Positions 43,006 through 63,855 of a DNA stretch of 64,000 bases are shown here, piece by piece. Positions within the stretch are counted from its first letter, which is position 1. Each line of letters starts with the position of its first letter. Source of the DNA: Terriglobia bacterium (GTDB lineage: Bacteria; Acidobacteriota; Terriglobia; Bryobacterales; UBA6623); NCBI GenBank assembly GCA_009841225.1, contig VXMF01000008.1, positions 17,763 through 81,762 on the forward strand, given 5' to 3'. The notes below the pieces were generated by a model. That model was not told where the DNA came from, did not search any database, and saw only the letters and a list, made by a program, of their open reading frames with translations. The position numbers and the translations under genes were made by a program.

Positions 43006-43755
43006 ATGGGGGATCGGCTCGAGAACATGGACGAAGGCTGGACAGAACAGGACAGCACCACGTTCCTGAGGGATGCCGAGTGCTTCGTGCCGGAGCGGGA
43101 GCTGCTGGTCGAGAGCGTTTGCCGGCTCATTCCGACCGGGATTGAATCCGACCTAGTCGTCGAGCTCTGTTGCGGCGACGGCGTACTTAGCGAGGCGATC
43201 CTTGACAACCTGGAACAGGTCCGGGTGCTTGCTCTCGACGCATCGGACGTGATGCTCGAGGCCTGCAGGCAACGGACCGAGCGCTACAAGAATCGAATCA
43301 GGGTCGGCCGGTTCGATCTCGGGAGCCCGGACTGGCGGAAGTTTGCCCAGCCGCCTCGAGCGATCGTGTCAACCTTCGCGATCCACCACTTGGCGGACAA
43401 CGCGAAGCGCAGGCTCTTCCGCGACATGGCAGGTCAGCTTGCCCCGGGCGGCGTACTGGCCACCGCCGACCTGATCCAACCGTCAAGCGAGGCTTCGACC
43501 CGGCTGGCTGCCTGGCAATGGGACGAAGCTGTCAAAGAGCGATCCATCCAATTACGGGGAGACTTGTCAGGGCTCGCGTCCTTTCGCGCCGAACGGTGGA
43601 ACCATCACGCGCTGGCAGACCCGGATCCGATCGACCAGCCCGCGCACCTGCTCGACCAGCTCCTCTGGCTGTCGGAGGCAGGACTGGAGAGCGTGGATGT
43701 GCATTGGTCGAAGGGCGGGATGAGCCTCTTTAGCGGCGTCAGGCCGTCAGCCTAA
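43006..43755 (+). CDS. Class I SAM-dependent methyltransferase
   Basis: VVELCCGDG motif I, LALDASDVML, STFAIHHL, LAPGGVLATAD. Confidence 0.88.
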   Translation: MGDRLENMDEGWTEQDSTTFLRDAECFVPERELLVESVCRLIPTGIESDLVVELCCGDGVLSEAILDNLEQVRVLALDASDVMLEACRQRTERYKNRIRVGRFDLGSPDWRKFAQPPRAIVSTFAIHHLADNAKRRLFRDMAGQLAPGGVLATADLIQPSSEASTRLAAWQWDEAVKERSIQLRGDLSGLASFRAERWNHHALADPDPIDQPAHLLDQLLWLSEAGLESVDVHWSKGGMSLFSGVRPSA

Positions 43756-45953
43756 CCAGCAGGTTCGGCTCGCCGCTCCGAGCTAGCCGGCGCTGTCGGC
43801 GCAGGCTCTACCGTCAGCCTGATCAGACCGCTCGCCACCCAGCGCTCTCGCACCAGCACTTCGGCCGAGATCTCGCAGGACCCTACAACAGCCTCTTGGG
43901 TCGCCGCCAGATCGACCGTGAAGCGCTGGCCATGCCTGCGCACCTCGGCAGACACTCCTTGCGGCAGTCCCTTGACGGTTAGCGGCGCATCCTCGGGCAA
44001 GTCCGCGCCATCCAACTCAAGTGTCGCGTGACCGCCCTGCGCCAAGGTCACGCTCTCGGTGGTCGTTGAGAGGCCGCCCTGCGACGGCTCGACTACCGTC
44101 ATCTCAACTGCTGGCAGCGGCCTGCGCACGAAATTCCAAAGATCGAGCAGCGGTCCCATGATGAGCGTGGAGCGGGCTTCCACCACTTGCCGGTCCGGAC
44201 TCGGCTCTTCAGCCGTCGGCGTGCCGAGAACTCGAATCGGATAGGTCCCCAGTGGCAGGGACTCCGGCACCCCGATCCGAAAGACGTGCTCCGGGATGAT
44301 CATGTCCGCACCGTCGGCGTTGGGCTCGAAGAGCTGGTCTGCCCGGAATCGAGCCCCGTGTCCAGCCACCCCGGGCGGCATCCCCTCGAGCCAGATCGAG
44401 ACCTCTCCCGAGAAACCCGCCTCGCGGACCAGGTGAACCTTGAGCTCGCCTTCGCCACCTCGCGCGACGGCGAAGTTCTCTGGCGTGGTGAAGAGTTGGA
44501 AACTTGGCCGCTCGCTGCGCACCTTCAAGCGGTAACGGTAGCTCGGGCCGCCGCGTGAGGTGCGATCCCTGATCTCGACAAAGAACACATCGTCCTGATC
44601 CGGCGTGTAATACAGGCTGCTGTCGGGATTGCCGAGCAACGTGCCCTGGCCGGCTACGACGTCGTCGTTCTCAGCGAGCCGCCGTCCCTCCGAATCGCGG
44701 ATCGTCAGAACGGGATCGAGGTGCGGCACGCCGAGTTGAGTCGCGAGGGTCCAGAACCGCAGAGGTACGCCGGCTACACCGTGAATGGCGAACACATCGC
44801 GCTCGCCCGGCGTTTCGAGCACGCCGTCGATCAGATAGCCGCCCTCGCGCCAGTCGGCGGAGGCCGCGTTGGACTCGCCGAATTCCTGCAAGCTGCCCAG
44901 CTCGATGATGGGCCCGTCGGCAATCCCGTTCGCTCCAGCGGCCCAGACCCGCCACAGTCCGGCCTCGGCATCGGCCGGGACGGCCAGCTCCACCACGACC
45001 TCGTCTTGGTCAACCTGCACGACCTTCCCTTCAATGCGGGGCACAAGCGGTCCGCTGGCGGGGTCCGGCCGGAAGTGTATCGGCATCGTGAACGGGTACG
45101 TCATACGGGCATATTCGGCCGCTCGCAGGGCGGTCACGAACACGCTCCGAACTGTGCCCAGCCCACTGCCATGCAGCGTCAGGCTTGAACTGCTGCCGAT
45201 CGCGACGCCCAATGGTGCCGCGTATTCGATCGTCGGCAACGAGCTTGTGCGCAGGATGTACGAGGAGTTCTTCCCGAAGTTAAATCCTCGCGGGCCGCGA
45301 TACTGATCAACCTTGATGTAATGCGTCCCGGCCTTCTGAAAGGTGTGCTCGATGAATGGCGTTTCAAGGTAGTCGTCTCGGTCATCGTTGAATCTCACGC
45401 TTCGGCCGTCCCGGTCCAGCAGGGACATCTTCGCCTCGACCGCCGAACCATACTCGATCGAGCGTAATTCGATGGCGAGTCGCTCGCCGGCGTGCGCATG
45501 GATCGCGAAAACATCGATGTCCTCGGACCCCTCTAGTACCCCTTGGACCTCCGTGGGCAGGCTGGCGATTTCTTGCGCCCGTCCTACAACGTCGTTCGGC
45601 TCGGCTTCACGCAGGTCCCGAAACTGGCCCACGTTGAACATCGCCGTTGTCGAGTACCCGTCCGCTGTCCGCACGCGAAATAGGTGCGGGCCGAGGGCAG
45701 CGTCGGCAGCGATAGACACGACCCCGCGAAGCTTGCCAGCGCTCGCGTAGGTGGTGGAGGTCCAGGCAATGTCTGCCGAGTCGAACTCCAGCCCCGAGAC
45801 ATTGGAGAGATGCCTGCCCAAGATTTCCAGCTCGACCTCGGTGCCTCGCTGTCCACCCAGCGGGTCGACCCTGCTAACGGCCGGGCTAGGCAGATCGCTT
45901 GCCAGAGCGTGCAATCCGAGCGCGCAGGCGACCAGCGGCCCGAGGCGTGGCAA
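43752..45953 (-). CDS. Exported PPC (pre-peptidase C-terminal)-domain / Ig-like repeat protein, copy A
   Basis: Signal peptide; PLGGQRGTEVELEILG, REAEPND, DIDVF, ENDD..NPDS, YRYRL. Confidence 0.85.
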   Translation of the reverse strand: MPRLGPLVACALGLHALASDLPSPAVSRVDPLGGQRGTEVELEILGRHLSNVSGLEFDSADIAWTSTTYASAGKLRGVVSIAADAALGPHLFRVRTADGYSTTAMFNVGQFRDLREAEPNDVVGRAQEIASLPTEVQGVLEGSEDIDVFAIHAHAGERLAIELRSIEYGSAVEAKMSLLDRDGRSVRFNDDRDDYLETPFIEHTFQKAGTHYIKVDQYRGPRGFNFGKNSSYILRTSSLPTIEYAAPLGVAIGSSSSLTLHGSGLGTVRSVFVTALRAAEYARMTYPFTMPIHFRPDPASGPLVPRIEGKVVQVDQDEVVVELAVPADAEAGLWRVWAAGANGIADGPIIELGSLQEFGESNAASADWREGGYLIDGVLETPGERDVFAIHGVAGVPLRFWTLATQLGVPHLDPVLTIRDSEGRRLAENDDVVAGQGTLLGNPDSSLYYTPDQDDVFFVEIRDRTSRGGPSYRYRLKVRSERPSFQLFTTPENFAVARGGEGELKVHLVREAGFSGEVSIWLEGMPPGVAGHGARFRADQLFEPNADGADMIIPEHVFRIGVPESLPLGTYPIRVLGTPTAEEPSPDRQVVEARSTLIMGPLLDLWNFVRRPLPAVEMTVVEPSQGGLSTTTESVTLAQGGHATLELDGADLPEDAPLTVKGLPQGVSAEVRRHGQRFTVDLAATQEAVVGSCEISAEVLVRERWVASGLIRLTVEPAPTAPASSERRAEPAG

Positions 45954-45956
45954 TCC

Positions 45957-47234
45957 TTAGCTCCAGAGCTCTTCGACGGGCTGGCCTTCCTTGTTGATGG
46001 CAATCGGTCGGCCGTTGGCGTGGTAGTTCTTGCGGTAGTCGATTCCCAGCGCTTCATAGACGGTCGCGCCGAGATCTTCGATGCTGACCGGGCGGCGAAT
46101 CGGCTCCGCCGCGTGCCCGTCGGTCTCGCCGATGACCGCACCGCCCTGTATCCCGGCACCGGCGAGCGCCACCGAGAAGGCGCCCGGCCAATGATCGCGG
46201 CCACCGGAGAAATTGATCTTCGGAGTCCGTCCGAAATCTCCGATCACAAGCACTAACGTCGAATCCAACAGCCCCCGCTGCTCAAGGTCTTCCAACAACG
46301 TGACGAATGCTCGGTCAAATTCCGGGACCAGCTTCTTGTGCTCGGGCTCGTTATTGACATGGGTGTCGTATCCCCACTGGAAGATGCTGGCTAGGCGAAC
46401 GCCCGCTTCTACTAGGCGGCGCGCCAGCAGGGCGCCCTGTCCGATGGTCGTGCGCCCGTAAGCGTCGCGCAGCTCGGCCGGCTCGGCCGAGATGTCGAAT
46501 GCCTGCTTGGCTGCCGGCGAAGAGATCAAGTCGAACGCCTTCTGGTAGAACTCGTCCATGGAGTCGATCAGCGGGGACTGTTCGACCCGCTGGAACTCTC
46601 GATTCAGCGCTCCCAGAAGCTCGGTGCGCGAGCGGGCCTCGGACAAGTTGATCCCGCCGGGCAGCGTCAGGTCCTGGACCGAGAAGTTCTCCGCCGTCGG
46701 CTCCCCGCTCACGAACGGATCGAAAGTCGGGCCGAGAAAGCCCGCCTCGGCCGACAAATCGGCCATTGGAATCGACACGAACGGCGGCAGGCCGTTCTTC
46801 GGGCCGAGCTCCTTTGCGAGCGTCGCCCCATAGCTCGGCTGCAGCACTTCGTTCCTGGGCTTGGTTCCGCTAAATACGTATTGCCGGGCACGCTCGTGGA
46901 TCGCTTCGTCGGAATGCATCGAGCGGATGATGGAGAACTTGTGGAGTGCCTTGGCGGAGCGCGGGAGCAGTTCAGACACCCGGACTCCCGGCACGGCGGT
47001 GGGAATCGCCTTGAAGCTGCCGCGAATGTCCGAGACGGCCTCGGGCTTGGGATCGAACGTGTCCAGCTGGCTGGCGCCGCCGGCTTGGAACAGTACGATG
47101 CAGGACCGCTCGCTACCTTCGCTGGCAGCAAGCAGCCTTGTCAGGTTGATGCCGGAGAACGCAAGCGATCCGACCTTGAGAAAGTCGCGTCGGCTAGCGC
47201 CGAACAGTGCTCTTGGAGGCCGGACGATTGGCAT
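45957..47234 (-). CDS. DUF1501 family protein, Tat substrate, copy A
   Basis: SRRDFLK Tat motif; GGASQLDTFDPKP, SIIRSMH, YDTH, GDFGRTP, GRDHWP. Confidence 0.92.
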   Translation of the reverse strand: MPIVRPPRALFGASRRDFLKVGSLAFSGINLTRLLAASEGSERSCIVLFQAGGASQLDTFDPKPEAVSDIRGSFKAIPTAVPGVRVSELLPRSAKALHKFSIIRSMHSDEAIHERARQYVFSGTKPRNEVLQPSYGATLAKELGPKNGLPPFVSIPMADLSAEAGFLGPTFDPFVSGEPTAENFSVQDLTLPGGINLSEARSRTELLGALNREFQRVEQSPLIDSMDEFYQKAFDLISSPAAKQAFDISAEPAELRDAYGRTTIGQGALLARRLVEAGVRLASIFQWGYDTHVNNEPEHKKLVPEFDRAFVTLLEDLEQRGLLDSTLVLVIGDFGRTPKINFSGGRDHWPGAFSVALAGAGIQGGAVIGETDGHAAEPIRRPVSIEDLGATVYEALGIDYRKNYHANGRPIAINKEGQPVEELWS

Positions 47235-47246
47235 CGTGACACCTTC

Positions 47247-49850
47247 TCAGTGATTGAGCTGGAACTCCTCGGAATTCAGCACCGCCCAGAGCACGTTCTC
47301 GAACGCCCTGCGGCGACTGCGCCCTGCGGCTCGCTCGGCGGCGACGAACCGAGCGATTCGGCCCTGCTCCCTCTGGCTGGGCGGGCGGGCATAGGCACGT
47401 TCGTAGAGCGTGGCGACCAGTTGCCCGTCGGCAATGCCCTGCCCCAGTAGATCGCCCAAGATGTTGCCTTCCGCCCCCACCTTGTCGCGCACCGTCGCAC
47501 CGTTCATTAGATGCAGCGCTTGACTCAGTGTGGGCTCTGGCACCCGATCCTTCAAGATGTCCCGACGCGGCAGCCCAAAAGCTACCAAGAAATAGTCCGG
47601 GCCGTCCGGTACATAGATGTCCTTTGCGGAGGTGCCCTCCGGGTAGCCGTCGAAGGGATGCGGGACGCCCGTGACTTGACCCAAGATGTCGAGTAGCACC
47701 TCCGCTGACAGCCGGCGCGGCTGGTAGCTGCCGAACAGCGTACGACGGACCGGGCTCGAATCATTCGCACGGGACGACAGCTGGTAGGTCCGCGAGTTCA
47801 AGATCGCGCGATGGAGGGGCTTGAGTCGGTATCCGTTGCGGACGAAGAACTCCGCCAGCCGATCCAGAAGCTCAGGGTTCGAGGGCTGGTTCGTGGAGCG
47901 AAAGTCATCGTACGGCTCCACGATGCCGGTACCGAAGTACTGGTGCCACACGCGGTTGACCGTGGCCTTTGCGAAGTACGGATTCTCAGCCGAGACGATC
48001 CAGTCGGCCAAGACATCGCGCCTATCGCGTCCCTTCGGGATGTCGGGCGCGGGGCCTCCCAAGAACTTTGGAGGCACCTGCCGCTTGGTCGCGGGATGCT
48101 CGACCTCGCCCTCCTCGTCGACGTACCAAGTGCGGCGGTACGCGCCGTAGCCGTGCTTGACCCGCAAGCGGGCGAAAAAAGCCGCCAAGCCGTAGAAGTC
48201 GTCCTGTGTGTAGTTCTCCAACGGATGGCTATGGCATTCGGCACACTCCATGCGCACGCCAAGGAACAACCGCGACACCGTTGGCGTCACCTTGGCAACG
48301 CTGAACTCCTTGAGCATGAAGTCCGTGGCGGGATGCCAGAAGTTGGCAGCCGGGTTGAGCATCGTGTCCCCGGTGCTCGTCAGCAGCTCTCGCGCGAATT
48401 CGTCATATGGCCGGTCGTCCGCCAGCCAATCCCGGACCCAGTCCTTGAAGACCCCCATCGAGCGGCCTTGCGAGTGCAGCTGGCAATTGCGGAACCAGTC
48501 CTCGAACCGCACTGTCCAATGCGAGGCGTGCTCCGGCCGCTCCAGCAATCTGTCGATCAGGTGCGACCGCTTGTCTGCTCTGCTGTCCTGCACGAAGGAG
48601 CGCACCTCATGCGGTTCCGGCAGCAGGCCGATGGAGTCCAGATAGACCCGCCGCACGAATTCCTGATCGGATGTCGGGGCGGACGGCCTGACATTCATCT
48701 GACGGAGCTTTGCGAAGACCGCTTCGTCGATGAAGTTGCCCGTCTCGTAGGCGGGATAGTCCGGTCCGGCCACCGCATCTAGGACGCCGATTTGCGAGGT
48801 CGCCACCTTGCCCATCGCACGCGCCGTGACAGTCACCAGTCCCCGGCTCTCTGCAGCCAAGGTGCCGTTGGGAGCGATCTCGGCGATGGCGCTGTCGCCC
48901 GAGAAGTAGCGCACCTCGCGAGTCATGTCTCGCGTGCTGCCGTCGGACAGACGTCCGATCGCGACCATCCTCTGTTCTGCACCCGAACCCACGAGCACGC
49001 GCTCGGACGGATACAACTCCAGCCGTTCCAACCGGGCGCCGTGGCTTCCGAACGGCGCTCCTTGGCGCAGCCAGCTGAGGATCGTCTCGTACTCTTCGGA
49101 ATCCCTTTCCATCAGCCGACCGCCGCCATGAGTCTCCTGAAAGGTGGGCTTGCGCAGGAGCAAGCTTTGCTCGGGGTTCTCCAAGTCGACCCGCTGCCCG
49201 TCGCGGCCCGCGACGATCGCATCGTGGTCAGCCCCGATGTCGTACCCGAACAGTGAGAGCTTGAATCCGGCTTGGCCGGCGGGAGATCCGTGGCACGCGG
49301 ATCCGTTGCACCCTTTCAACGTCAATATCGAGACGATATCCGTTGCAAAGCTGACCGCGACTTCGCGCTCGCCCGCTCCCACGCGCACCTCGGTCGTCGC
49401 GGAGAGCGAGCCGCACTGGGCCCGCACTTCGGCGCGACCCTGCGCAACACCGACCAGCCTCGCTAGAGCGGTGTCAACCCGAACCACTGCTGGGGCGGAC
49501 GAGGTCACGAAGCAATCGTGGCTGACGTCTGCCTCGTGGCCGGTGGCGTCCACGGCCGTCAGCAGGAAGCCCTGCGCGAGGCCCGGCTCGGCTAGAACGA
49601 TGCCCGTGGGCTCGAAGCGCAACGCTTGCCAGTCGGACTGCTGCGATTCAGCAGGGGCCGGCACCGCAAGCGCGGCGAATATGGCGACTGCAGCTCGGCC
49701 GGCAATCCCCCGCGCTTGAGCCGGGTCGCGGTCCCTCGCGGGGAGCCCGATCCGGCGACGGAGTCGCCAGCACGCCGCGACAGCTTGGCACCCCATGCCA
49801 CCTAGGATTCTACATCCCAGAAGCTGCGAGCGGTCCCTCCGCCAAGGCAC
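47247..49850 (-). CDS. Ig-like + DUF1549 + DUF1553 c-type heme protein, copy A
   Basis: GCNGSACHG, GFKLSLFG, FVRRVYLDSIG, RMECAECHSHP, TVNRVW, PRRLSAEVLLD; true start probably 49796 or later. Confidence 0.92.
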   Translation of the reverse strand: MPWRRDRSQLLGCRILGGMGCQAVAACWRLRRRIGLPARDRDPAQARGIAGRAAVAIFAALAVPAPAESQQSDWQALRFEPTGIVLAEPGLAQGFLLTAVDATGHEADVSHDCFVTSSAPAVVRVDTALARLVGVAQGRAEVRAQCGSLSATTEVRVGAGEREVAVSFATDIVSILTLKGCNGSACHGSPAGQAGFKLSLFGYDIGADHDAIVAGRDGQRVDLENPEQSLLLRKPTFQETHGGGRLMERDSEEYETILSWLRQGAPFGSHGARLERLELYPSERVLVGSGAEQRMVAIGRLSDGSTRDMTREVRYFSGDSAIAEIAPNGTLAAESRGLVTVTARAMGKVATSQIGVLDAVAGPDYPAYETGNFIDEAVFAKLRQMNVRPSAPTSDQEFVRRVYLDSIGLLPEPHEVRSFVQDSRADKRSHLIDRLLERPEHASHWTVRFEDWFRNCQLHSQGRSMGVFKDWVRDWLADDRPYDEFARELLTSTGDTMLNPAANFWHPATDFMLKEFSVAKVTPTVSRLFLGVRMECAECHSHPLENYTQDDFYGLAAFFARLRVKHGYGAYRRTWYVDEEGEVEHPATKRQVPPKFLGGPAPDIPKGRDRRDVLADWIVSAENPYFAKATVNRVWHQYFGTGIVEPYDDFRSTNQPSNPELLDRLAEFFVRNGYRLKPLHRAILNSRTYQLSSRANDSSPVRRTLFGSYQPRRLSAEVLLDILGQVTGVPHPFDGYPEGTSAKDIYVPDGPDYFLVAFGLPRRDILKDRVPEPTLSQALHLMNGATVRDKVGAEGNILGDLLGQGIADGQLVATLYERAYARPPSQREQGRIARFVAAERAAGRSRRRAFENVLWAVLNSEEFQLNH

Positions 49851-49902
49851 TAGCGGGCATCAAGCGGGCTCTCTTGCGGCGACGAGCCGCGACCTCGCCT
49901 GC

Positions 49903-52398: not shown

Positions 52399-52448
52399 AG
52401 ATCATTTCGAGTGTAACGCCTGCGGCTGGCTATTCTGGAAGCTCGTCA

Positions 52449-53644: not shown

Positions 53645-53674
53645 CCGCTCGTCCGATCTCCCGGCGACGCGATG

Positions 53675-54509: not shown

Positions 54510-54628
54510 GAGCGTGCGGGATTCCGCTACGCTGCTTCTTCGTGGGTAGACTGAACAGGCGGAATTCCAGCATTAAGCTGCACCGGGAGATCGGCGTATC
54601 GCAGAAGGCCGTGTGGTTCCTCGTGTGA
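54510..54628 (+). pseudogene. IS1595-family transposase remnant
   Basis: Translation NSSIKLHREIGVSQKAVWFL-stop resembles the IS1595 HTH consensus GISSxQLHRELGVTQKTAWF. Confidence 0.65.
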
Positions 54629-54764
54629 GCGCCTCGTAGAATCTGCCTGTGACACTCACGAACCCAAGCATCGTCGGTTGTCGGTATCGGCGTCGGGGCA
54701 CCTGCAGACATCGGCGCGCGCTTCGGCACTTACGGAATCAATACGCAAGAATGGAGGTCAAGTC

Positions 54765-55715: not shown

Positions 55716-55999
55716 GGAAGCGGCCCGCCGCTGCAATCCTTGCCCTGCGCAGTTCGACCAGCGTGCCGGCGGGCCTCCCCTGCCGGCACGCGGCGCTGCC
55801 GTTGGTTCCTACCCCGAAGCTCGTCAGCCACATCTTATTGTCCTGGTTGAGGCGGAATCGGAGAGGTTGGTGCCTGCTTCCACGTCCTGTGCAATCGGCG
55901 GGGGGCTTCGAAGGCCTGCCATGTGCTGTCCGGGCAGACGTTCCCGGCGTAGCCGACGGCTGGGTCGAACGTGCGGACGAAGCGGTAGGGCCCCAGGCC

Positions 56000-56270
56000 G
56001 GGCGGAAGAGTGTGGGTCAGCAGCAGGTCGATGCTCGTGCGGGCGGGCCGCGCAATGACGATTGGCCTCCGGCACTCAGCGGCACGCGGACTGGCAGCGG
56101 ATGATCGAGATCGCCGCATGGGTCAGGCAGGCGAGGTGGCGCGGCACGTCGCGCACCCACACCCGGCAGCGATCCTCGTCGTGCGTGAAGTCCCGCACGG
56201 AGTGCAGGCGGTACTCTCGATGTGCCAGTGGTTGCGGATCAGCGCCGCCAGCTGCGTGGGCGTGCTGATC
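56000..56270 (-). pseudogene. ISAs1-family transposase C-terminal remnant (frameshifted)
   Basis: Manual translation LAALIRNHWHIE / frameshift / RLHSVRDFTHDEDRCRV..PRHLACLTHAAISIIR matches the ISAs1 consensus IRxHWxIENxLHWVRDxxFxEDxxR. Confidence 0.75.
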
Positions 56271-56284
56271 CGGCAGCAGCGCGG

Positions 56285-57871
56285 TCAGGCGGCGACTCGC
56301 TCGGATCTGGCCGTTACGGGCGCGCCTTGCACAGGAGGATCGGGGCGACCGCGGCGATGGCGGCGGTGTTCTTCCAAGCCCTCCCTAATGATGCGCAAGA
56401 AGCTGGCCCGATTCTGCCACAGCAGCGCGACCCAGTGGCGCTTCTTCATCTGCGGGAAATAGATTCCGCGAAATGCCATCCGAGTGAAGAACATCACAGC
56501 CCGCTCGTGGTACGGCCGATGCTTGATCTGATCTAGCGCCCGCTCCGTCGATTCAGGGGAATAAGACTCCGTCCAAGCCTGATGAACCTCTTGCTCGGCC
56601 GCTTCGATGCTGATGTGTTCCGGCGTGTAGGCCATGCGGAACGGCCGGAAATCCAGCCAGTGCTTGGGACGCGTCAGCCGCCCCTGCTCCATCAGGCGGT
56701 CATACAGGGGTGTCGCCGGATACGGGGTCATCAGTCCGTACACCGGCAGCCCAGGAGGCCAGCTCGCAATCGCATCGAGCGTCTCTTGAGCCACGCCCGG
56801 ACGGTCGCCGTCCATCCCGAAGATGAACGAAGTGATCGAATAGATGCCCCGGCTGGCCAGTCTGTCCAAGACCTGTCCGTACAGGTCCGGCTTGTTGAAA
56901 CCCTTGTTGACGTCCTTGAGGCTGGCCGGGTCGATGGATTCCAAGCCCATGAAGATCCAGCGGCCGCCGCTCTCCTTGATCAGATCCGCCAGCTCTTCGT
57001 CCTTGAGCAAGTTCATGCTGATCTGCGCCACCCACGGTATCTGGGCGTCTTGGGCGATCATCTCCCGCAACAGCGATTTGGTGCGCTTGACATTAATCGC
57101 GAAGTTATCGTCGATGAAGAACACCGCGACCCGGCCGCCCTCGGCTCTTGCCCGCGCCTTCAAGCGCAGGATCTCGTCGATCACGCTCTGGTTGCTGCGA
57201 AAGCGGATCGAGTCTCCGAAGAAGCCTGTAACGGTGCAAAAGTCGCAGCCGTACGGACAGCCCCGCCCGGATTCGATCGGCACCACGTAGAGACTCTTCC
57301 AAGTGCTGCCCGCCTTCTCCAGCAGGTAGCGGCCCCACTTGGGAACCTTGGCAACCAGGTCGAACTGCCGCAAGTCCATCGTCTCCCAAGGGATCTGGGG
57401 ATAGTCTTCCAGCGACGGCTTGATCTCCGCGCCCGATTCGTCCACGGGCATGTAGACTTCCTGCAGCTGGCCAGCGGCGGCATCGTTCACGATCTTCGGC
57501 CACAGATCGTCGGCCTCGCCGAGGGCAACAGCGTCAGCGTGGCGCGGTTCGCCGTCCTTGCCGATCGGCTCGTTGGGCACCTCCGTGACATGCGGGCCGC
57601 CCATCACGACCTTGGCTCCGGCGGCCCGAATCGCGTCGGCCATGCGATAGGCCCGGGCGGCCATGCGCGTCATCGCGCCGATGCCTGCCAGCTCGATGTT
57701 GTTATCGCGGACAAACTGCGCGATGCTCTCCTCGGTCATGCTCTGGGCATTGCCGTCGATGAGGAACACCTTGTGACCGGCCGGCGTCACAGCCTGCAGA
57801 ACGAACATCCACAGGTGTGGCATGTAGTTCTTGGTGACTTGGTTGTCCGGGTTGTAGAGAAGAATGTTCAC
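56285..57871 (-). CDS. Cobalamin-binding radical SAM protein (class B methylase-like)
   Basis: N-terminal B12 domain (AYRMADAIR..VVMGGPH), SGRGCPYGCDFC CxxxCxxC, FFIDDNF, GLES, FIFGMD, TPYPATP; GTG start at 57871. Confidence 0.9.
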   Translation of the reverse strand: MNILLYNPDNQVTKNYMPHLWMFVLQAVTPAGHKVFLIDGNAQSMTEESIAQFVRDNNIELAGIGAMTRMAARAYRMADAIRAAGAKVVMGGPHVTEVPNEPIGKDGEPRHADAVALGEADDLWPKIVNDAAAGQLQEVYMPVDESGAEIKPSLEDYPQIPWETMDLRQFDLVAKVPKWGRYLLEKAGSTWKSLYVVPIESGRGCPYGCDFCTVTGFFGDSIRFRSNQSVIDEILRLKARARAEGGRVAVFFIDDNFAINVKRTKSLLREMIAQDAQIPWVAQISMNLLKDEELADLIKESGGRWIFMGLESIDPASLKDVNKGFNKPDLYGQVLDRLASRGIYSITSFIFGMDGDRPGVAQETLDAIASWPPGLPVYGLMTPYPATPLYDRLMEQGRLTRPKHWLDFRPFRMAYTPEHISIEAAEQEVHQAWTESYSPESTERALDQIKHRPYHERAVMFFTRMAFRGIYFPQMKKRHWVALLWQNRASFLRIIREGLEEHRRHRRGRPDPPVQGAPVTARSERVAA

Positions 57872-58254
57872 AGTGCATCCGGCCGCTTGGATTTCGAGGA
57901 CGCTTGCAGCCGAACGCCAACAAACCCGAGGCACTACACAGAGTGTCGTTGTGCTCCAAAGAGAGTAGCACGGAGTGCCCGCCGTGTGACGGCGAGCAAG
58001 GCCTATAACACTCCCTTGCCCGAAACGCGGCCGCGCGGCTAGGCTTGGCCGCTGAACACAATCAGGGCCTAGTCCGCCCGATCGCGGACTTCGCCTGCTC
58101 TGGGCGAAGCTCGCGAGGACTTCCAGCGCGCTGGCCAAGAAGATCAGCCGCCGCCCGAAGATGCCGCATGAGGTTCCGCAAGGGCAGCCGGGCCCAGATC
58201 TGTCGGACGGCCGCAACGGTTGCGGCAAGCACTTCCATCTACTACGCTTGCAGT

Positions 58255-60672
58255 GTGCGCTTGGCACGATTCGGAATCTGCATCTGCGCAGCCGTGCCGG
58301 CTTGGTCGGCACCTGCCGCAGTCCTGATCCAGCCCTCCGATATCAGGCTCCAGAGTCCGGGCGAATCCCAGCGCATCGTGCTGTCCGGAGGATCGGGCTG
58401 CGAGACATCCAGCACGGATCCAAGAGTGGCCGCGGTTGAAGGAAACCGCGTCGTGGCACACGCTCCGGGGCAAGCTCGAATCGACGTGCGCTGCGCCGAT
58501 GGATCGGCTGCGACCACCGTCCAAGTCGGGAACCGGCGCTCCGCTATGGGAGTCGGCTTCGAGCGCGACCTGCTTTCGATCCTTACCACCAAGGGCTGCA
58601 ACTCGTCCGCGTGCCACGGCTCGCCGGCCGGCCAGAACGGCTTCAGGCTTTCCCTGTACGGCTCGGACCCCCGCTTTGATTACGACATGATCGTGAACCA
58701 GCATGCGGGGCGGCGAATCTCGGCCGAATCGCCGGAAGACTCGCTACTGCTGGCCAAGCCGAGCTTCGCGATCGCTCACGGCGGGGGCCAACTCATGACA
58801 CCCGCGTCGGACGAATACGCAACCATCCTCGAATGGTTGCGGCAGGGTACGCCGTACGGTGCGGGCGGCACGCGGTTGGAGAGACTTGAGATCCATCCGG
58901 GCGAGCAGGTGCTGACCGGCGCGGGCCAGCGCCAGCCCGTCGTCGTGGTCGGCCGACTTTCCGACGGCTCGACGCGCGATCTGACCGCGGAAGTCCGCTA
59001 CGCCGTCAAGGACGAGGCCGTCGTGACACTCGAAGACGACTGGACCGTCACCGCGAAGGCTCCCGGCATGACAACCGTTATGGCCCGCGCAATGGGCAAG
59101 GCAGCCGCGGCACAGTTTATCGTCGTCGAAGAGTCGCCGAGCCGCGGCCTGCGGTTCCCCGATCCCGCCAATTTCATCGACGAGCATGTCTTCGACAAGC
59201 TCCGCGACGTCGGTGTCGAGCCGTTTCCGCTCAGTGACGACCGCACTTTCCTGCGTCGGGTGTACCTGGACACTGTCGGAGTCCTGCCAACGGCAGGGGA
59301 GGCCGAGGCCTTTCTTGCGAGCGACCGCCCCGACAAGCGCTCGGCCCTCGTGGATCGGCTGCTGGACAGCGAAGAGTACTCCACACAATGGCTAGTGAAG
59401 TTCGAGGACTGGTTCCGGAATTCCCAGTACTACTCCCAAGGCCGCACCAACGGCTCGTTCAAGCGCTGGCTGCACGACTCGATCCGCGAGGACTGGCCCT
59501 ACGACGAGATGGTGCGCGCGATGCTCACGGCCGAGGGCGACACCACGGTGCGCCCGGCCGGCAATTTCTGGCATCCAGCGATCGACTTCATGCTCAAGAA
59601 GTTCGAAGTCGAGAAGGCGGTGCCAACCATCACCCGCTTGTTCTTGGGCCAGCGGCTCGAGTGCGCCCAGTGCCACAACCACCCGCTGGAGAACCTCACC
59701 CAAGACGACTTCTACGGGCTGGCGGCCTTCCTGGCGCGCACGCGGGTCAAGCACGGCTATGGCCAGTACCGCAGGATCTGGTACGACGACCGGCGCGGAG
59801 AAATCGAGCATCCTGTCACCAAGCAATCGGTCAAGCCACGCTTTCTGGGCGGCGAACAGCCCGAGATCCCTACCGGAACGAGCCGCCGTGAGGTCCTGGC
59901 AGACTGGGTCACGCGCACCGAGCAAACTCAATTCGCCCGAGCCACCGTCAATCGCGTGTGGTACGAGTACTTCCAGCGCGGCATCGTCGAGCCCTTTGAC
60001 GACTTCCGCTCTACCAACCGGGCCACGCACCCGGCACTGCTGGACGATCTGGCGCGCTACTTCATCGATTCGGGCTTCCGCTTCAAGGCCCTGCACCGCC
60101 TGATCCTCAACTCCAAGACCTACCAGCTCTCGGCTCACGTGCCGGGCCGCCCGGGAGGCGAGCGGCCGCTCGAGGACGCGCTCTTCGCTCGCTACCTGCC
60201 GCGCAAGCTGCCCGCGGAAGTGCTGCTGGACGCGATCTCGCGAGTCACCGGCGTCGCAGAGGAATTCAACAACTACCCGGCCGGCACATCCCCCAAGGAA
60301 CTGATCGCGAGCATTGGCGCCACGCACTTCCTGACCACATTCGGCCATCCGCGCAGGGATATCATGGAAGCGCGTTCCAACGCGCCCTCGCTGGCCCAGG
60401 CCTTGCAGATGATGAACGGCGACGTGCTCGCCGGGCGCATGGAGGCGGAGGGGTTCGTGCTGGACACGCTGTTGCGGCAGGGGCTGAGCGATGGCGCGAT
60501 CATCGACACGCTATACGGACGGGCCTTCTCGCGCACTCCCGAGGCCGCTGAGCGCGAGGCTCTCGAGGCCTACCTCGCAGCCGAATCCGCGGCTGGACGA
60601 GACCGGCGGCAGGGCTTGGCAAACATGCTCTGGGCAATCCTCAACACGAAGGAATTCCAGATGAACCTCTGA
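58255..60672 (+). CDS. Ig-like + DUF1549 + DUF1553 c-type heme protein, copy B
   Basis: GCNSSACHG, GFRLSLYG, FLRRVYLDTVG, RLECAQCHNHP, TVNRVW, PRKLPAEVLLD; start placed at GTG 58255 by the signal peptide. Confidence 0.92.
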   Translation: MRLARFGICICAAVPAWSAPAAVLIQPSDIRLQSPGESQRIVLSGGSGCETSSTDPRVAAVEGNRVVAHAPGQARIDVRCADGSAATTVQVGNRRSAMGVGFERDLLSILTTKGCNSSACHGSPAGQNGFRLSLYGSDPRFDYDMIVNQHAGRRISAESPEDSLLLAKPSFAIAHGGGQLMTPASDEYATILEWLRQGTPYGAGGTRLERLEIHPGEQVLTGAGQRQPVVVVGRLSDGSTRDLTAEVRYAVKDEAVVTLEDDWTVTAKAPGMTTVMARAMGKAAAAQFIVVEESPSRGLRFPDPANFIDEHVFDKLRDVGVEPFPLSDDRTFLRRVYLDTVGVLPTAGEAEAFLASDRPDKRSALVDRLLDSEEYSTQWLVKFEDWFRNSQYYSQGRTNGSFKRWLHDSIREDWPYDEMVRAMLTAEGDTTVRPAGNFWHPAIDFMLKKFEVEKAVPTITRLFLGQRLECAQCHNHPLENLTQDDFYGLAAFLARTRVKHGYGQYRRIWYDDRRGEIEHPVTKQSVKPRFLGGEQPEIPTGTSRREVLADWVTRTEQTQFARATVNRVWYEYFQRGIVEPFDDFRSTNRATHPALLDDLARYFIDSGFRFKALHRLILNSKTYQLSAHVPGRPGGERPLEDALFARYLPRKLPAEVLLDAISRVTGVAEEFNNYPAGTSPKELIASIGATHFLTTFGHPRRDIMEARSNAPSLAQALQMMNGDVLAGRMEAEGFVLDTLLRQGLSDGAIIDTLYGRAFSRTPEAAEREALEAYLAAESAAGRDRRQGLANMLWAILNTKEFQMNL

Positions 60673-60683
60673 GGAAATCCGCT

Positions 60684-61955
60684 ATGCAGCTTTCCGAAAT
60701 GCGCGCACGCTACTCCCGCAGGGACTTCCTGCGCATGGGCGGATTCTCGATCGCCGGTATCTCGCTCCCTCAACTGCTCGCCGCCTCGCCAGGGCGTAGC
60801 GACATGTCGTGCCTCGTCTACTTCCACACTGGCGGGCTGTGCCAGCACGACTCGTTCGATCCCAAGCCTGACGCGCCGCGGGAGGTGCGTGGCGGATTCG
60901 GCACGATCCCCACGACCGTTCCAGGAGTGCGGTTCAGCGAACTGCTGCCACGCAGCGCGGCGAACTTCAAGCGCCTCTCTGTGATCCGGTCGATGTTCTC
61001 GCTGGAGGCCATCCACGAAAAGGCCAAGCAATACGCCTTTTCCGGGCAGCGGCCCAACAACGCCTACAAGCACCCGGTCTACGGCTCGGTAGTGGCGCAC
61101 GAATTCGGCACTCGCAACGGCCTGCCGCCATTCGTTGTGATTCCCAAGAAGGACATCTGCGCGGAAGCAGGTTTCCTAGGGTCGGCCTACGACCCGTTCA
61201 TAGCAGGAGATCCTTCCAAGGAGAAGTACTCCGTACAGGACTTGACCCTGCCGACAGGCCTGGGGCTGGAAGAAGCCCGCGGCCGCGCCCGCCTGCTCTC
61301 CGCGCTGGACGCACGGCTCGAGGCTGTCGAGAAATCCGGCGTGGTCGGCAGCATGGACCACTTCTACCAGAAAGCCCTCGACCTGGTCAGTTCGCCAGAG
61401 GCGAAGCGGGCATTCGACATCGGTTCAGAGCCCGACAAGGTGCGCGACGCATACGGGCGCACGACCGGCGGCCAGGGCGCCCTGCTGGCCCGGCGGCTGA
61501 TCGAGGCAGGCGTGCGATTGGTGACGCTCTTCCACGGCGGCTACGACACCCACTCCGACAACGACAAGACCAACAAGAAGCTGTACCCAGAGTTCGACCA
61601 ATCCTTCAACGCGCTCTTGGAAGATCTGGATGCTCGGGGGCTGCTCGATTCGACACTGGTCTTGGCGATCGGCGAATTTGGGCGCACTCCGGAAATCAAC
61701 CACTCGGCCGGGCGGGACCACTGGCCAAGCGTGTTCTCCATCGCGGTCGCGGGAGCGGGAGTGCCCGGCGGCCAAGTGATCGGCAGCTCGGACGCGATGG
61801 GTGCGGAACCGACGGAGCGGCCGATTTCCATCGAGGATCTGGGCGCGACGATCTACAGCAAGCTGGGTATTGACACGCACACGCAATACCACGCGCTCGG
61901 GCGGCCGATCAGGATCAACGATGGCGGGGAACCGATTCCCGAGCTCTTCGCGTAG
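60684..61955 (+). CDS. DUF1501 family protein, Tat substrate, copy B
   Basis: SRRDFLR Tat motif; GGLCQHDSFDPKP, SVIRSMF, YDTH, GEFGRTP, GRDHWP. Confidence 0.92.
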   Translation: MQLSEMRARYSRRDFLRMGGFSIAGISLPQLLAASPGRSDMSCLVYFHTGGLCQHDSFDPKPDAPREVRGGFGTIPTTVPGVRFSELLPRSAANFKRLSVIRSMFSLEAIHEKAKQYAFSGQRPNNAYKHPVYGSVVAHEFGTRNGLPPFVVIPKKDICAEAGFLGSAYDPFIAGDPSKEKYSVQDLTLPTGLGLEEARGRARLLSALDARLEAVEKSGVVGSMDHFYQKALDLVSSPEAKRAFDIGSEPDKVRDAYGRTTGGQGALLARRLIEAGVRLVTLFHGGYDTHSDNDKTNKKLYPEFDQSFNALLEDLDARGLLDSTLVLAIGEFGRTPEINHSAGRDHWPSVFSIAVAGAGVPGGQVIGSSDAMGAEPTERPISIEDLGATIYSKLGIDTHTQYHALGRPIRINDGGEPIPELFA

Positions 61956-63855
61956 CCGCTACGCCCCCGCGGCGCGGCTTGCGCACGCAAGCGTCCTGGC
62001 GCTAGCGGGTGCCCTGGCGGCCGAGGATCCGTCCGACCCGTGGATCGACCGCATCGAACCGCTGGGCGGACAGGTGGCTACCGCTGTCGATGTGACTCTG
62101 GTAGGCAGCAATCTCGAGCTTCCTGCGACGCTGGAATTCGATTCTTCTCACCTGACATGGCAGCCGGCAGGCTCTGACGGCCAGGGCGCCCTCACGGGCC
62201 GGATCTTGATCGGTGCGGACGCACCGCTAGGGCCTCATATCGCAACGCTGCGCACCCCGCGAGGGCTTTCAAACTCACGCATGTTCTACGTCGATGGATT
62301 TGCCTCGACGCTCGAGGTGGAGCCCAACGACACCATCGCCGGCGCACAGACGATCCGCCTCGGACCGCAAACGATCCAAGGCGGGATGCACCAGCTGAAG
62401 GATATCGACACCTATCAGTTTGAGGCCAGAGCCGGGGAGCGTTGGACGTTTGACCTGCGGTCGATCGAATACGGGGGATTTCTCGAAAACGACATGTCGC
62501 TGCTCGACAGCGCTGGCGACCGAGTCGCCTTCAACGACGACCGCGACGAATACTTGGAAACACCGTTCATCGAGCACACCTTCGAGCTCTCGGGCACGTA
62601 CTACCTCAAGCTCGACCAATACCGCGGCCCGCAGCGCGTCAATTGCCACAAGAACTGCGGGTATATGCTCCGCATCGGCAACCTTCCCGTGGCCCACGCG
62701 GCATTCCCTCTGGGAGCGCGCGCGGGCCAGCAGGTCGAACTCTCGCTGCGCGGGCGGTGGCTTCAAGACGTGGAGAGGATCTGGTTGGCACCAGTCCGTC
62801 GCGCCGAGTACTACCGGCTGACATTCCCGTACACGATTCCTCTGCGGGTCACGGATACGGCGCTTCGGCGCCTAGCGGTGGACATCGAAGAGCGGAACGG
62901 AGACCGCGTCACAGGCAGGCTGACCATACCCCGCGATGCTCCTCGAGGCCTGTGGCGCATCTGGGCAGAGTCGCCGGGCGGCAGTACGGATGCCATCAGC
63001 TTCGAGGTCTCGGACATGGCCGAGCCCGATTGCGCCGAAGCGATTTCGCCCTCGCCCGAGGGCGTCGCCTGCAACAGTGTTCTGCGCCGCCACGATGAGG
63101 AGCACGAGTATTGGCTCGAACTTCGGGCTGACCGACCGGTCGTGGTCACCACGCTGGCGGCACAGCTCGGGCTGCCCAATATCGACACCGTGCTCGAGCT
63201 GTTCGACAGCGACGGATCTTTGGTAGCCGAGCACGATGACCTGATGTCGGGCCAAGGCACGGTGATCGGCAATCCGGACTCGATGCTCTATTTCCGAGCG
63301 CCGGAGAGCGGCCGCTACCGCCTATTGGTGCGCGACCGAATTGACCGCGGCGGGCCCGACATGGCGTACCGGCTGCGCATCGAAGAGCGCGAGCCTCGCT
63401 TCGCCTTGCTGGCGGCGCCTGAAAACCTGAACGTAAATGCCGGCACGACGGAGCGCATTGACGTGCTGATGATGCCCGAACCGGGCTTTCGCGACGTGGT
63501 TGATGTCTGGATCGAAGGACCGCCGCAAGGTGTATCGGAGGCGCTAGGGCAGTTCCGGGCCGAGCAGTACTTCGGCCCTTCCGGTGATGGCGACAATGTC
63601 GTCATCCCGACTGCATTCTTGGATGTGGCGGTCGCAGCGGACCTGCCGGCGGGGGACTATCCGCTCCGAATCCTCGGAAAGGCGCACGGCAGCGACGAGA
63701 CGGTCAGAGCGTTCTCGACGCTCTGGATCGGACCTCCGCGGAAACGCAACGACGTTCGCCGCCCGTTGGAGTCCGTCCGGCTGACAGTGGTCGATCCACC
63801 AAAAGCGACAGAGGAAAAACCTGCCGGAGCGACACTAGCAGGCGGGTCTGAGTGA
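61921..63855 (+). CDS. Exported PPC-domain / Ig-like repeat protein, copy B
   Basis: PLGGQVATAVDVTLVG, LEVEPND, DIDTY, EHDD..NPDS; start uncertain (61921 to about 61980). Confidence 0.85.
   Translation: MAGNRFPSSSRSRYAPAARLAHASVLALAGALAAEDPSDPWIDRIEPLGGQVATAVDVTLVGSNLELPATLEFDSSHLTWQPAGSDGQGALTGRILIGADAPLGPHIATLRTPRGLSNSRMFYVDGFASTLEVEPNDTIAGAQTIRLGPQTIQGGMHQLKDIDTYQFEARAGERWTFDLRSIEYGGFLENDMSLLDSAGDRVAFNDDRDEYLETPFIEHTFELSGTYYLKLDQYRGPQRVNCHKNCGYMLRIGNLPVAHAAFPLGARAGQQVELSLRGRWLQDVERIWLAPVRRAEYYRLTFPYTIPLRVTDTALRRLAVDIEERNGDRVTGRLTIPRDAPRGLWRIWAESPGGSTDAISFEVSDMAEPDCAEAISPSPEGVACNSVLRRHDEEHEYWLELRADRPVVVTTLAAQLGLPNIDTVLELFDSDGSLVAEHDDLMSGQGTVIGNPDSMLYFRAPESGRYRLLVRDRIDRGGPDMAYRLRIEEREPRFALLAAPENLNVNAGTTERIDVLMMPEPGFRDVVDVWIEGPPQGVSEALGQFRAEQYFGPSGDGDNVVIPTAFLDVAVAADLPAGDYPLRILGKAHGSDETVRAFSTLWIGPPRKRNDVRRPLESVRLTVVDPPKATEEKPAGATLAGGSE

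Follow-up and report, generated by a model that had tools for sequence, protein, structure and literature searches.

Why does one bacterial genome keep two copies of the same three-gene operon, and what could the three encoded proteins do together? This question is raised by a window of 64,000 nucleotides, the whole stretch of DNA analysed here, from an uncultured Bryobacterales acidobacterium with a genome of 5.7 Mb. Operon A lies on the minus strand (43752-49850) and operon B on the plus strand (~58255-63855), so that the two, about 8 kb apart and inverted relative to each other, point in divergent directions. Each consists of a gene for a PSCyt2/PSD1 (DUF1549/DUF1553) protein with two Big_2 domains, a gene for a DUF1501 protein with a Tat signal and a gene for an Ig-rich protein with two PPC domains. 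The genes of the two operons and of the spacer between them are as follows (window positions).

43752-45953, minus strand: operon A gene 3, PPC/Ig protein, 733 aa; PPC (PF04151) 20.2 bits, below the cut-off
45957-47234, minus strand: operon A gene 2, DUF1501 protein, 425 aa; Pfam DUF1501 (PF07394) 360 bits
47247-49850, minus strand: operon A gene 1, PSCyt2/PSD1 protein, 867-aa ORF; Pfam PSCyt2 163 bits, PSD1 160 bits, Big_2
49903-58312: spacer between the operons, outside the conserved unit
49903-52398, minus strand: spacer gene upstream of A, PIG-L/NPCBM_assoc protein; lineage-specific
within 49903-58312: spacer genes for DUF309, a short-chain dehydrogenase and an SMP-30/NHL-like protein
56285-58312, minus strand: spacer gene adjoining B, B12-binding radical SAM protein; lineage-specific
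58255-60672 (ORF open from 58045), plus strand: operon B gene 1, PSCyt2/PSD1 protein; Pfam PSCyt2 157 bits, PSD1 153 bits
60684-61955, plus strand: operon B gene 2, DUF1501 protein, 423 aa; Pfam PF07394 328 bits
61921-63855 (ORF open from 61801), plus strand: operon B gene 3, PPC/Ig protein; PPC (PF04151) 25.7 bits

The six ORFs lie where a first-pass annotation of the window had placed them, and the gap sizes that it gave are also correct. In operon A, 12 nt separate gene 1 from the DUF1501 gene and 3 nt separate the latter from the PPC gene, which begins with a TTG 3 nt past the DUF1501 stop; in operon B, the first gap is 11 nt and the last 35 nt of the DUF1501 gene are shared with the PPC gene. 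This spacing supports operon coupling as predicted from the sequence. The PPC start of copy B had been regarded as uncertain, and it is best placed at ATG 61921, in line with the ATG found at -32 to -38 in six orthologs of the B clade. As for gene 1, the likely start is ATG 49796 in A, with AGGTGG upstream, and either GTG 58255 (leader MRLARFGICICAAVPAWSA) or ATG 58168 in B. The promoter and terminator scan revealed no promoter-like sites, and terminator-like sites were fewer than in shuffled sequence. Homologs of the spacer genes are confined to 6-10 closely related loci.

Could the likeness of A and B be trivial, in that the region was duplicated locally not long ago or was misassembled, or that such similarity is generic to the families? 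The copies are merely ~8 kb apart and inverted, as such an origin might lead one to expect. However, protein identity between A and B, over nearly full length, is just 51% for the PSCyt2/PSD1 protein, 62% for DUF1501 and 40% for the PPC protein. Moreover, A and B each have their own orthologs in other genomes at 57-99% identity, which form separate clades in all three trees, and the same divergent arrangement is repeated on four other contigs, where the PPC genes are 15-16 kb apart. The motifs quoted in the first-pass annotation all occur in both copies, and they are specific to the subfamily rather than generic, being found in no other paralog of the genome (2/62 PSCyt2/PSD1, 2/65 DUF1501 and 2/5 PPC-like proteins). 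A trivial origin is refuted by the divergence, the two-clade trees, the repeated arrangement and the subfamily-specific motifs, and we give it virtually no chance.

All three gene trees show the same split into 17 A and 27 B members, with SH-aLRT values of 98/95 for DUF1501, 100 for the PSCyt2/PSD1 protein and 98 for the PPC protein. Therefore, the triad was duplicated as one block long ago, and the conclusion that A and B are two ancient copies of a conserved three-gene operon is well supported. The order PSCyt2/PSD1, DUF1501, PPC is kept in 42 of the 42 complete related loci, all in Acidobacteriota, so the resemblance of the operons is far beyond chance, and the same order is present in one Verrucomicrobia locus. 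Only the three triad genes are common across the related loci; no conserved fourth or accessory gene was found in the 42. Purifying selection acts on each of the six genes, with dN/dS of 0.06-0.24, lowest for DUF1501 and highest for the PPC gene. Consequently, the view that the window holds two intact, diverged paralogous copies of one gene order, which belong to a distinct and co-inherited subfamily, is borne out by the identities, selection, motifs, trees and synteny alike.

The operons belong, with good support, to the large PSCyt/PSD1-DUF1501 system that occurs in dozens of copies in Planctomycetes, Verrucomicrobia and some Acidobacteriota. It is among the largest uncharacterised gene families of these bacteria, with more than 60 copies here, and knowing its function would help to understand how bacteria that abound in soil and water and in association with sponges process what surrounds them. 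The domains were reportedly described as 'planctomycete-specific' by Studholme in 2004. The genome studied here carries ~63-65 DUF1501 and ~60-62 PSCyt2/PSD1 genes, and 47 of 63 DUF1501 genes have a PSCyt2/PSD1 neighbour within 500 bp. Such two-gene PSCyt1-PSCyt2-PSD1/DUF1501 pairs are on record (He et al., 2017; PMC5615132). The window triad shares with ordinary pairs the adjacency of the two Pfam families, whereas its proteins score much lower (~153-163 against ~265-295 bits for PSCyt2/PSD1, and 328-360 against 450-545 bits for DUF1501), and it adds the subfamily motifs, the Big_2 domains and the obligate PPC/Ig gene. It is well supported that the window copies represent a divergent subfamily, in which the PSCyt2/PSD1-DUF1501 pair has a third obligate partner, the PPC/Ig protein.

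Is the system new? The first-pass annotation had singled out the locus as the best candidate for an uncharacterised system, and as a claim of novelty this does not stand, because clusters of this type were already published in 2012. In PVC bacteria, Kamneva et al. (2012; Genome Biol Evol 4:1375, PMC3542564) described clusters of DUF1501, a PPC protein and PSCyt1/Big_2/PSCyt2/PSD1 proteins (plus PSCyt1/WD40) and reported their function as unknown. The window triad is this cluster type minus the PSCyt1/WD40 gene. Both contain a twin-arginine DUF1501 protein (matching PF07394 here), a signal-peptide protein with weak PPC matches and otherwise unannotated conserved regions, and PSCyt2, PSD1 and Big_2 in one protein, and both are tightly clustered and multi-copy per genome. 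However, the host here is an acidobacterium of the Bryobacterales, the gene order is fixed, and the PSCyt1 position is highly diverged, with CX4CH instead of CXXCH. In addition, the PSCyt1/WD40 gene is absent beside A and B and is not conserved in the 42 related loci, whereas sister modules on C27 and C35 of the same genome include it. What is added here is a well-defined subfamily whose genes are strictly inherited together as one block, the DUF1501 site described residue by residue, and a natural A/B pair. The literature on DUF1501, DUF1549, DUF1553, DUF1800 and PSCyt yielded no functional study.

The DUF1501 protein is predicted to have a sulfatase/alkaline-phosphatase (AP)-superfamily fold with a His at the formylglycine position. 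Compared by hhalign with 42 sulfatases of this genome, its profile matches at 95-96% probability, and S1 sulfatases or AP-superfamily proteins make up the whole of the top 50 in a Foldseek search with its AF2 model (E ~1e-7). It should be noted that this model is moderate (pLDDT 66), with poorly predicted loops near residues 52-54 and 337-347; Pfam gives no PF00884 match in A or B, and a sequence search of solved structures returned nothing for DUF1501. In the profile alignment, H113 stands opposite the Cys of CxPxR and E/D333 opposite the Asp of the sulfatase SD(N/H)G motif. Compared with the S1 formylglycine sulfatases (PF00884; e.g., human arylsulfatase A and carrageenan sulfatases), DUF1501 shares the overall fold and equivalent TG, (D/E)-x-G and GG motifs, but lacks C/S-x-P-x-R, has GG-x-S/C instead of the N-terminal DD metal ligands, possesses its own invariant WD-x-H and GRDH motifs and carries a Tat signal. 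Only one canonical sulfatase ligand is retained; therefore, the chemistry could differ much from hydrolysis. The full invariant set in A is D58, D61, K63, H113, D290, H292, D307, D333, R336, R346, D347 and H348. All 63 paralogs of the genome, A and B included, have H113, D290, H292, D307, R336, R346, H348, E/D333 and D/E58. The Tat motif is SRRDFLK in A and SRRDFLR in B, and its RR is kept in 62/63 paralogs.

The gene 1 protein of A comprises, from the N-terminus onwards, a Sec-type leader, a Big_2 domain, a small helical PSCyt1-like domain with an invariant C181-x4-C186-H187 and H241-GGG, a second Big_2 domain and DUF1549/PSCyt2, with an invariant C536-x-x-C539-H540, followed by DUF1553/PSD1. 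Copy B agrees with A in its domain order and in both Cys motifs, CX4CH and CXXCH. In both copies PSCyt2 and PSD1 occur in one protein, at 163/160 bits in A and 157/153 bits in B, well above the Pfam gathering thresholds of 29.8 and 28.5 bits; the helical domain matches PSCyt1 (PF07635) only at E = 0.1, and the match of residues 546-865 of A to DUF1800, with 27.4 bits, narrowly exceeds the cut-off. None of the 44 orthologs departs from CX4CH, H-GGG or CXXCH-x-H. The AF2 model of the A protein (pLDDT 74.9, pTM 0.77) is of low confidence around both Cys motifs, and the CXXCH segment is at once the most conserved part of the protein, with 42 invariant columns in ~85 residues, and the least confidently folded one (pLDDT 25-45). 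This is the pattern expected if the segment folds around a cofactor or a partner. In structure comparisons, the top Foldseek matches (adhesins and S-layer proteins) all come through the two Big_2 domains, the top 50 contain nothing from the PDB that corresponds to the helical DUF1549/DUF1553 body, and a sequence search of solved structures gave Big_2 matches only (teneurin-like, LigA).

Does gene 1 encode a c-type haem protein, as the first-pass annotation had put it? The CXXCH/CXnCH motifs, a Sec-type leader and maturation genes (three PF01578 matches to cytochrome c biogenesis genes in the genome) are all found. However, when the CX4CH domain and the CXXCH segment were compared as profiles with the PDB, no solved cytochrome was matched (best E = 0.37 and 0.74). 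Judged from its motifs, the product is thus a putative haem-binding protein.

Going by its sequence pattern, the gene 3 protein of A reads as a series of Ig-like domains in alternation with two domains of the PPC (pre-peptidase C-terminal) type, the segments of which contain NDDRD.YLETPFIEHTF and ENDD...GQGT..GNPDS, followed by predicted beta-rich C-terminal domains. Copy B lacks the last ~100 residues of A. Both fall just below the Pfam PPC cut-off of 25.9 bits; each has two PPC-like segments and an N-terminal leader, and many orthologs have precomputed PF04151 matches. The B protein matches NCBIfam NF038127 (34.5 bits, cut-off 29 bits), which is the only NCBIfam model matched by the triad proteins. 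No catalytic signature was seen in Pfam or NCBIfam, and nothing for this protein in a sequence search of solved structures. Anchoring of the A protein as a lipoprotein through LVAC was considered and rejected, as too short a hydrophobic stretch precedes the Cys, which B lacks.

Then, how could the three proteins work together? All three carry predicted export signals, in agreement with the first-pass annotation: Sec-type leaders on the products of genes 1 and 3 and the RR Tat motif on DUF1501. From operon coupling and co-inheritance, we infer that the three proteins may form a physical complex. The best overall explanation, an ancient block-duplicated operon that encodes an exported substrate-capture/metallo-hydrolase complex, has in our judgement about an even chance of being right. 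The mechanism that we prefer, namely such a capture and hydrolase complex, is a tentative one, to which we would give rather less than that. The gene 1 and gene 3 products would leave by Sec and the folded DUF1501 protein by Tat, for joint action outside the cytoplasm. DUF1501 would be the catalytic subunit, with His113 at the formylglycine position of a rebuilt sulfatase-fold site, where the invariant Asp, His and Arg residues appear suited to one or two metal ions, and it would probably cleave or transfer an ester-type group such as phosphate, sulphate or a related one. The large helical DUF1549/DUF1553 protein would be its partner, whose CXXCH segment may hold haem or a metal, and the fast-evolving PPC/Ig protein may bind or select a macromolecular substrate.

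Alternatively, the triad might be a redox machine, in which the PSCyt protein is a dihaem c-type cytochrome exchanging electrons with a substrate that is bound to the PPC protein or acted on by DUF1501. Tat export, predicted for DUF1501, is typical of cofactor-bearing redox enzymes. CXXCH is present in 62/62 PSCyt2/PSD1 paralogs of the genome, and the invariance of both Cys motifs in the 44 orthologs, the cytochrome c biogenesis genes and the PSCyt1-WD40 protein of the C27 and C35 modules point the same way, as do the PSCyt1 domains of canonical family members in the window, which match Cytochrome_CBB3 at E = 2e-10. However, the N-terminal domain of the present subfamily is barely PSCyt1-like, neither motif region resembles a solved cytochrome, a Pfam domain search of DUF1501 showed no Fe-S, molybdopterin or flavin motif, and we know of no redox catalysis in the sulfatase/AP-superfamily fold to which DUF1501 is assigned. 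An electron-transport reading was proposed by Kamneva et al. (PMC3542564), against which stand the related DUF1800-DUF1501 pairs in Proteobacteria, such as the ones that were transferred together with bacterial chitin synthase genes (PMC5122149). These operons share with the window triad a helical partner for DUF1501 and Tat export, but a PPC/Ig third gene is not reported for them. The DUF1800 partner is not known to have either the haem-motif PSCyt2 CXXCH domain or Big_2 domains. On balance, we consider a redox role unlikely. A likeness to quinohaemoprotein amine dehydrogenase (haem, Ig and propeller, with PF09099 in some PPC orthologs) was discarded, since PF09099 denotes nothing more than an Ig-like domain and that enzyme has no equivalent of DUF1501.

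Kamneva et al. also linked the cluster to cell organisation (PMC3542564), and a non-catalytic envelope or surface assembly, structural, adhesive or scaffolding, with DUF1501 as a binding module, would account for the many Ig-like domains, the adhesin and S-layer matches of gene 1 and the PPC/Ig protein without a catalytic signature. However, the His/Asp/Arg set invariant in 63 paralogs, together with the strongest purifying selection being on DUF1501, argues for catalysis or tight metal binding, and a variety of substrates would better explain why a genome has dozens of diversified copies. Such an assembly is, in our view, very unlikely. As regards the substrate of the preferred hydrolase complex, the flanking genes, conserved only in close relatives, gave no clue. 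A link to sulphated-glycan use was rejected as context evidence: DUF1501 genes are no nearer to the ~194 sulfatase ORFs in the genome than random segments are (18/63 within 5 kb, 32% expected by chance).

That two versions were retained, perhaps with different specificities, as the first-pass annotation had it, fits the age of both and a difference at a family-conserved DUF1501 loop. The loop is GGASQLD in A (Ser55, Leu57) and GGLCQHD in B (Cys55, His57). Ser55 and Leu57 are each found in 17/17 sequences of the A clade, while the B clade has Cys55 in 24/26 and His57 in 25/26, a signature of that clade; clade A and most DUF1501 paralogs are Ser-x-aliphatic and clade B is Cys-x-His. In the preferred mechanism, A and B would be isoforms of differing specificity or chemistry marked by these residues. 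A bolder proposal, distinctly unlikely as it stands, is a three-subunit exported metalloenzyme of an undescribed kind, in which the CXXCH-x-H stretch of ~85 residues, disordered alone, would fold onto DUF1501 and complete or gate its His/Asp metal site, the PPC/Ig protein would deliver a polymeric substrate, and A and B would be isoenzymes differing in metal or nucleophile chemistry. If this were true, the isoenzymes would offer a ready comparative handle on a system for which Planctomycetes, Verrucomicrobia and Acidobacteriota have dozens of loci. The A/B pair may also guide mutagenesis at the loop. The B protein is the only one among the 63 paralogs of the genome with Cys at position 55, where seven others have Gly, Pro, Ala or Thr; a nucleophile at this position is thus not essential throughout the family, and the change between Ser and Cys may be non-catalytic.

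The ORF survey of the region recovered six long ORFs arranged as two divergently oriented sets, module A and module B, which are listed below.

47247-49850, minus strand: module A cytochrome-like ORF; Pfam PSCyt2/DUF1549, PSD1/DUF1553 and Big_2
45957-47234, minus strand: module A DUF1501 ORF; Pfam DUF1501, 360 bits
43752-45953, minus strand: module A PPC ORF; weak Pfam PPC match, 20.2 bits (cut-off 25.9)
58045-60672, plus strand: module B cytochrome-like ORF; Pfam PSCyt2/DUF1549, PSD1/DUF1553 and Big_2
60684-61955, plus strand: module B DUF1501 ORF; Pfam DUF1501, 328 bits
61801-63855, plus strand: module B PPC ORF; weak Pfam PPC match, 25.7 bits (cut-off 25.9)

The duplicated six-gene layout reported in the first-pass annotation is confirmed, since the ORFs, the Pfam families and the near-full-length alignments of A with B agree (identities of 51% for the cytochrome-like, 62% for the DUF1501 and 40% for the PPC proteins), and the shared motifs quoted there all occur in both copies. 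The only addition from NCBIfam is NF038127 on the module B PPC protein. The genes are as tightly coupled as had been claimed, with intergenic gaps of 12 and 3 nt in module A and 11 nt in module B; the doubtful start of the module B PPC gene is best placed, judging from the sequence, at ATG 61921, with a 35-nt overlap with the end of the DUF1501 gene. Among the orthologs of module B (B clade), an ATG at -32 to -38 is seen again in six, while in the A clade the PPC start 3 nt past the DUF1501 stop is kept in 12 of 17 loci. The export claimed for the triad proteins is borne out at the level of predicted signals: both DUF1501 proteins carry a twin-arginine motif (SRRDFLK or SRRDFLR), and the remaining four have Sec-type leaders. 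The GC content of the modules (0.63-0.65) is like that of the rest of the window.

Then, do the modules form a distinct, co-inherited subfamily, as was proposed? Within the window's own genome, the motifs are confined to the two modules, that is, to 2 of 62 cytochrome-like, 2 of 65 DUF1501 and 2 of 5 PPC-like proteins, and both modules score far below ordinary members in the family models; the canonical PSCyt1x2-PSCyt2-PSD1 gene (34752-37385, minus strand), taken as a reference, reaches 264-295 bits and matches Cytochrome_CBB3. Five of the genome's cytochrome-like proteins form a subgroup recognised by an N-terminal C-x4-CH motif. A locus scan covering one genome per species recovered 46 loci, 45 from Acidobacteriota and one from Verrucomicrobia (L056, with the same three-gene order); because two PPC motifs served as its seeds, distant relatives are under-sampled. 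The order cytochrome-like, DUF1501, PPC is found in 42/42 complete loci, and only these three genes are common to all loci, the flanks being kept in no more than about 12 close relatives. A maximum-likelihood tree was built for each protein, with the genome's more distant module, on contig C25, as the root; in every tree the same 17 rows fall on the A side and the same 27 on the B side, and this separation is supported at 98/95 (DUF1501), 100 (cytochrome-like) and 98 (PPC). Four further contigs show A and B pointing away from each other in the same way, their PPC genes being separated by 15-16 kb. Purifying selection acts on each of the six genes (dN/dS 0.06-0.24), most strongly on DUF1501 and least on PPC. 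These congruent trees, the recurring arrangement and the purifying selection indicate an ancient duplication of the triad as one unit, after which both copies were retained. Consequently, the distinct subfamily holds, and A and B are very probably an ancient block duplicate of a known module type.

The PPC protein was found at E <= 1e-20 in only 13 of 301 sampled genomes of the phylum, and its relatives in a large protein collection form at least 571 clusters, named only 'PPC domain-containing' or 'hypothetical'. Related loci come from Bryobacterales and Terriglobia MAGs, and the genome's nearest public relatives bear MAG names such as SB0664_bin_31 and RHO3_bin_36/37/40; the nearest, Terriglobia bacterium SB0664_bin_31, shows protein identities of 93-98% (A) and 99-100% (B). 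Two near-identical B-type triads lie 3.4 Mb apart in a single Bryobacterales genome (L023 and L037, both on OZ250179.1), with DUF1501 branch lengths of 0-0.003; this pair is a recent duplication, unlike the ancient A/B split.

The module type has been described previously. Among the DUF1501 neighbourhoods of PVC bacteria, the most complex is a four-gene cluster made up of DUF1501, which in some cases has a Tat signal, a protein that combines a signal peptide with weak matches to PPC, a PSCyt1/Big_2/PSCyt2/PSD1 protein and a PSCyt1/WD40 protein, for which a membrane-targeted electron-transport role was proposed and the function stated as unknown (Kamneva et al., 2012, PMC3542564); the same statement was made for Verrucomicrobia (He et al., 2017, PMC5615132). 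Three of these four parts have a counterpart in the window's triads, and no PSCyt1/WD40 gene is linked to them; the triads are therefore a WD40-less acidobacterial subfamily of that cluster type. Thus, the 'uncharacterised system' of the first-pass annotation is not a new type. Further literature searches found no functional study of these families. Related loci in the same genome are as follows.

C27:31855-37840 (L057 2353-8339), minus strand: sister module; PSCyt1-WD40 464 aa, PPC 839 aa, PSCyt2/PSD1 750 aa
C35:183765-188839 (L059 1266-6340): variant; DUF1501 457 aa, WD40 propeller 309 aa, PSCyt2/PSD1 953 aa
C25: sister locus; PPC-like, then cytochrome-like gene, then DUF1501

The C27 module is without DUF1501, and a CCG/4Fe-4S protein adjoins it divergently. 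The C35 variant has no PPC gene, and its 953-aa protein carries the C-x4-CH motif; its WD40 ORF and the next ORF, whose start it overlaps, may be one fused gene.

Aligned with a profile of 42 of the genome's sulfatases, the profile of its 63 DUF1501 paralogs gave 95-96% probability, with E/D333-Phe at the sulfatase Asp-Asn/His ligand pair and the GG-x-S loop at the place of the Asp-Asp ligands. The top 50 PDB matches of the AlphaFold2 model of DUF1501 (pLDDT 66, pTM 0.72; models of the triad proteins were built on 36-38 sequences) are all S1 sulfatases or members of the alkaline-phosphatase superfamily (E ~1e-7). Residues H113, D290, H292, D307, R336, R346, H348, E/D333 and D/E58 are invariant in 63/63 paralogs, D61, K63 and D347 are nearly so, and both A and B keep the full set. 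DUF1501 is therefore a sulfatase-fold protein with a rebuilt His/Asp-rich site that probably binds metal. A classical formylglycine sulfatase was ruled out, because the invariant His113 takes the Cys position of C-x-P-x-R in the profile alignment. The loop after the first strand is GGASQLD in 17/17 A-clade sequences, whereas the B clade has Cys55 in 24/26 and His57 in 25/26 (GG[AL]CQHD). Ser55 occurs in 55/63 paralogs and Cys55 only in copy B; the other seven have Gly, Pro, Ala or Thr, so Ser55 is not a universally required nucleophile.

The AlphaFold2 model of the module A cytochrome-like protein (residues 52-867; pLDDT 74.9, pTM 0.77) runs from a Big_2 Ig domain and a small helical domain with C181-x4-C186-H187 and H241-GGG to a second Big_2 domain and a large all-helical DUF1549/DUF1553 body. 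Across 44 orthologs there is no variation in either Cys motif or in the C536-x-x-C539-H540-x-H542 segment. The stretch around CXXCH is conserved more strongly than the rest of the chain, 42 columns being invariant over about 85 residues, and has the lowest model confidence (pLDDT 25-45), as would be expected if it folds around a cofactor or partner; the shallow 38-sequence alignment could also be the cause. Profiles of both Cys-motif regions matched no solved cytochrome, and a fold search with the model returned Ig-domain matches only. Haem binding, as in the c-type heme protein proposed earlier, is thus a plausible prediction from the invariant motifs.

Operon coupling, co-inheritance, export signals, a sulfatase fold bearing a set of invariant polar residues, and conserved Cys-His motifs form the established basis for any mechanism. 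We tentatively suggest that the three proteins would act jointly outside the cytoplasm, DUF1501 as a metallo-hydrolase or transferase, the helical DUF1549/DUF1553 protein as its cofactor-bearing partner and the fast-evolving PPC/Ig protein as the substrate-binding part, with A and B as isoforms; this whole reading is a reasonable possibility that falls somewhat short of even chances. A redox machine, to which the Cys-His motifs and the electron-transport proposal would be congenial and the sulfatase-like fold and cytochrome-free profile searches less so, appears unlikely. Less likely still is a non-catalytic structural role, for which the Ig domains might speak and the invariant polar residues of DUF1501 might not.

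Gene context provides no substrate clue: in this genome, DUF1501 genes are found close to a sulfatase gene no more often than chance would give (18/63 within 5 kb vs. 32% expected), and the genes that separate and flank the modules are specific to the lineage (among them PIG-L/NPCBM_assoc, DUF309, short-chain dehydrogenase, SMP-30/NHL protein, B12 radical SAM protein and methyltransferase). Neighbouring features are listed below.

49903-52398, minus strand: PIG-L (GlcNAc deacetylase-like) + NPCBM_assoc protein, 831 aa; found in only 6 related loci
56285-58312, minus strand: B12-binding radical SAM protein, 675 aa; adjoins module B divergently
30445-31968 and 37518-39092: sulfatases flanking the stretch 30445-39092

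About 50-100 bp separate module A from the PIG-L/NPCBM_assoc gene, its immediate upstream neighbour on that strand, which may be co-transcribed with it in this lineage. The B12 radical SAM gene is kept only in about 10 close relatives and so is probably unrelated to the triad. No DUF1501 adjoins the canonical PSCyt gene, and a PQQ-propeller protein and a 3-keto-disaccharide hydrolase/DUF3471 protein lie between it and the sulfatase at 30445-31968. GC dips to 0.566 at 22-24 kb of the window, vs. about 0.64 elsewhere; Pfam matched no family on the low-GC ORFs 22451-23386 and 23383-24822 (both minus strand), and the window contains no tRNA genes.

The genome (5.74 Mb, 98.6% complete) has about 63-65 DUF1501 genes, about 60 PSCyt2/PSD1 genes, 69 PSCyt1 matches, about 194 sulfatase ORFs and cytochrome c biogenesis genes, a planctomycete-like inventory in a Bryobacterales-type acidobacterium. 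Just past the window's right end (contig positions 84627-88868), an ORF of 936 aa that matches PSCyt1 internally precedes one of 467 aa that does not encode DUF1501; the pair may represent a PSCyt3-type protein and its partner gene.
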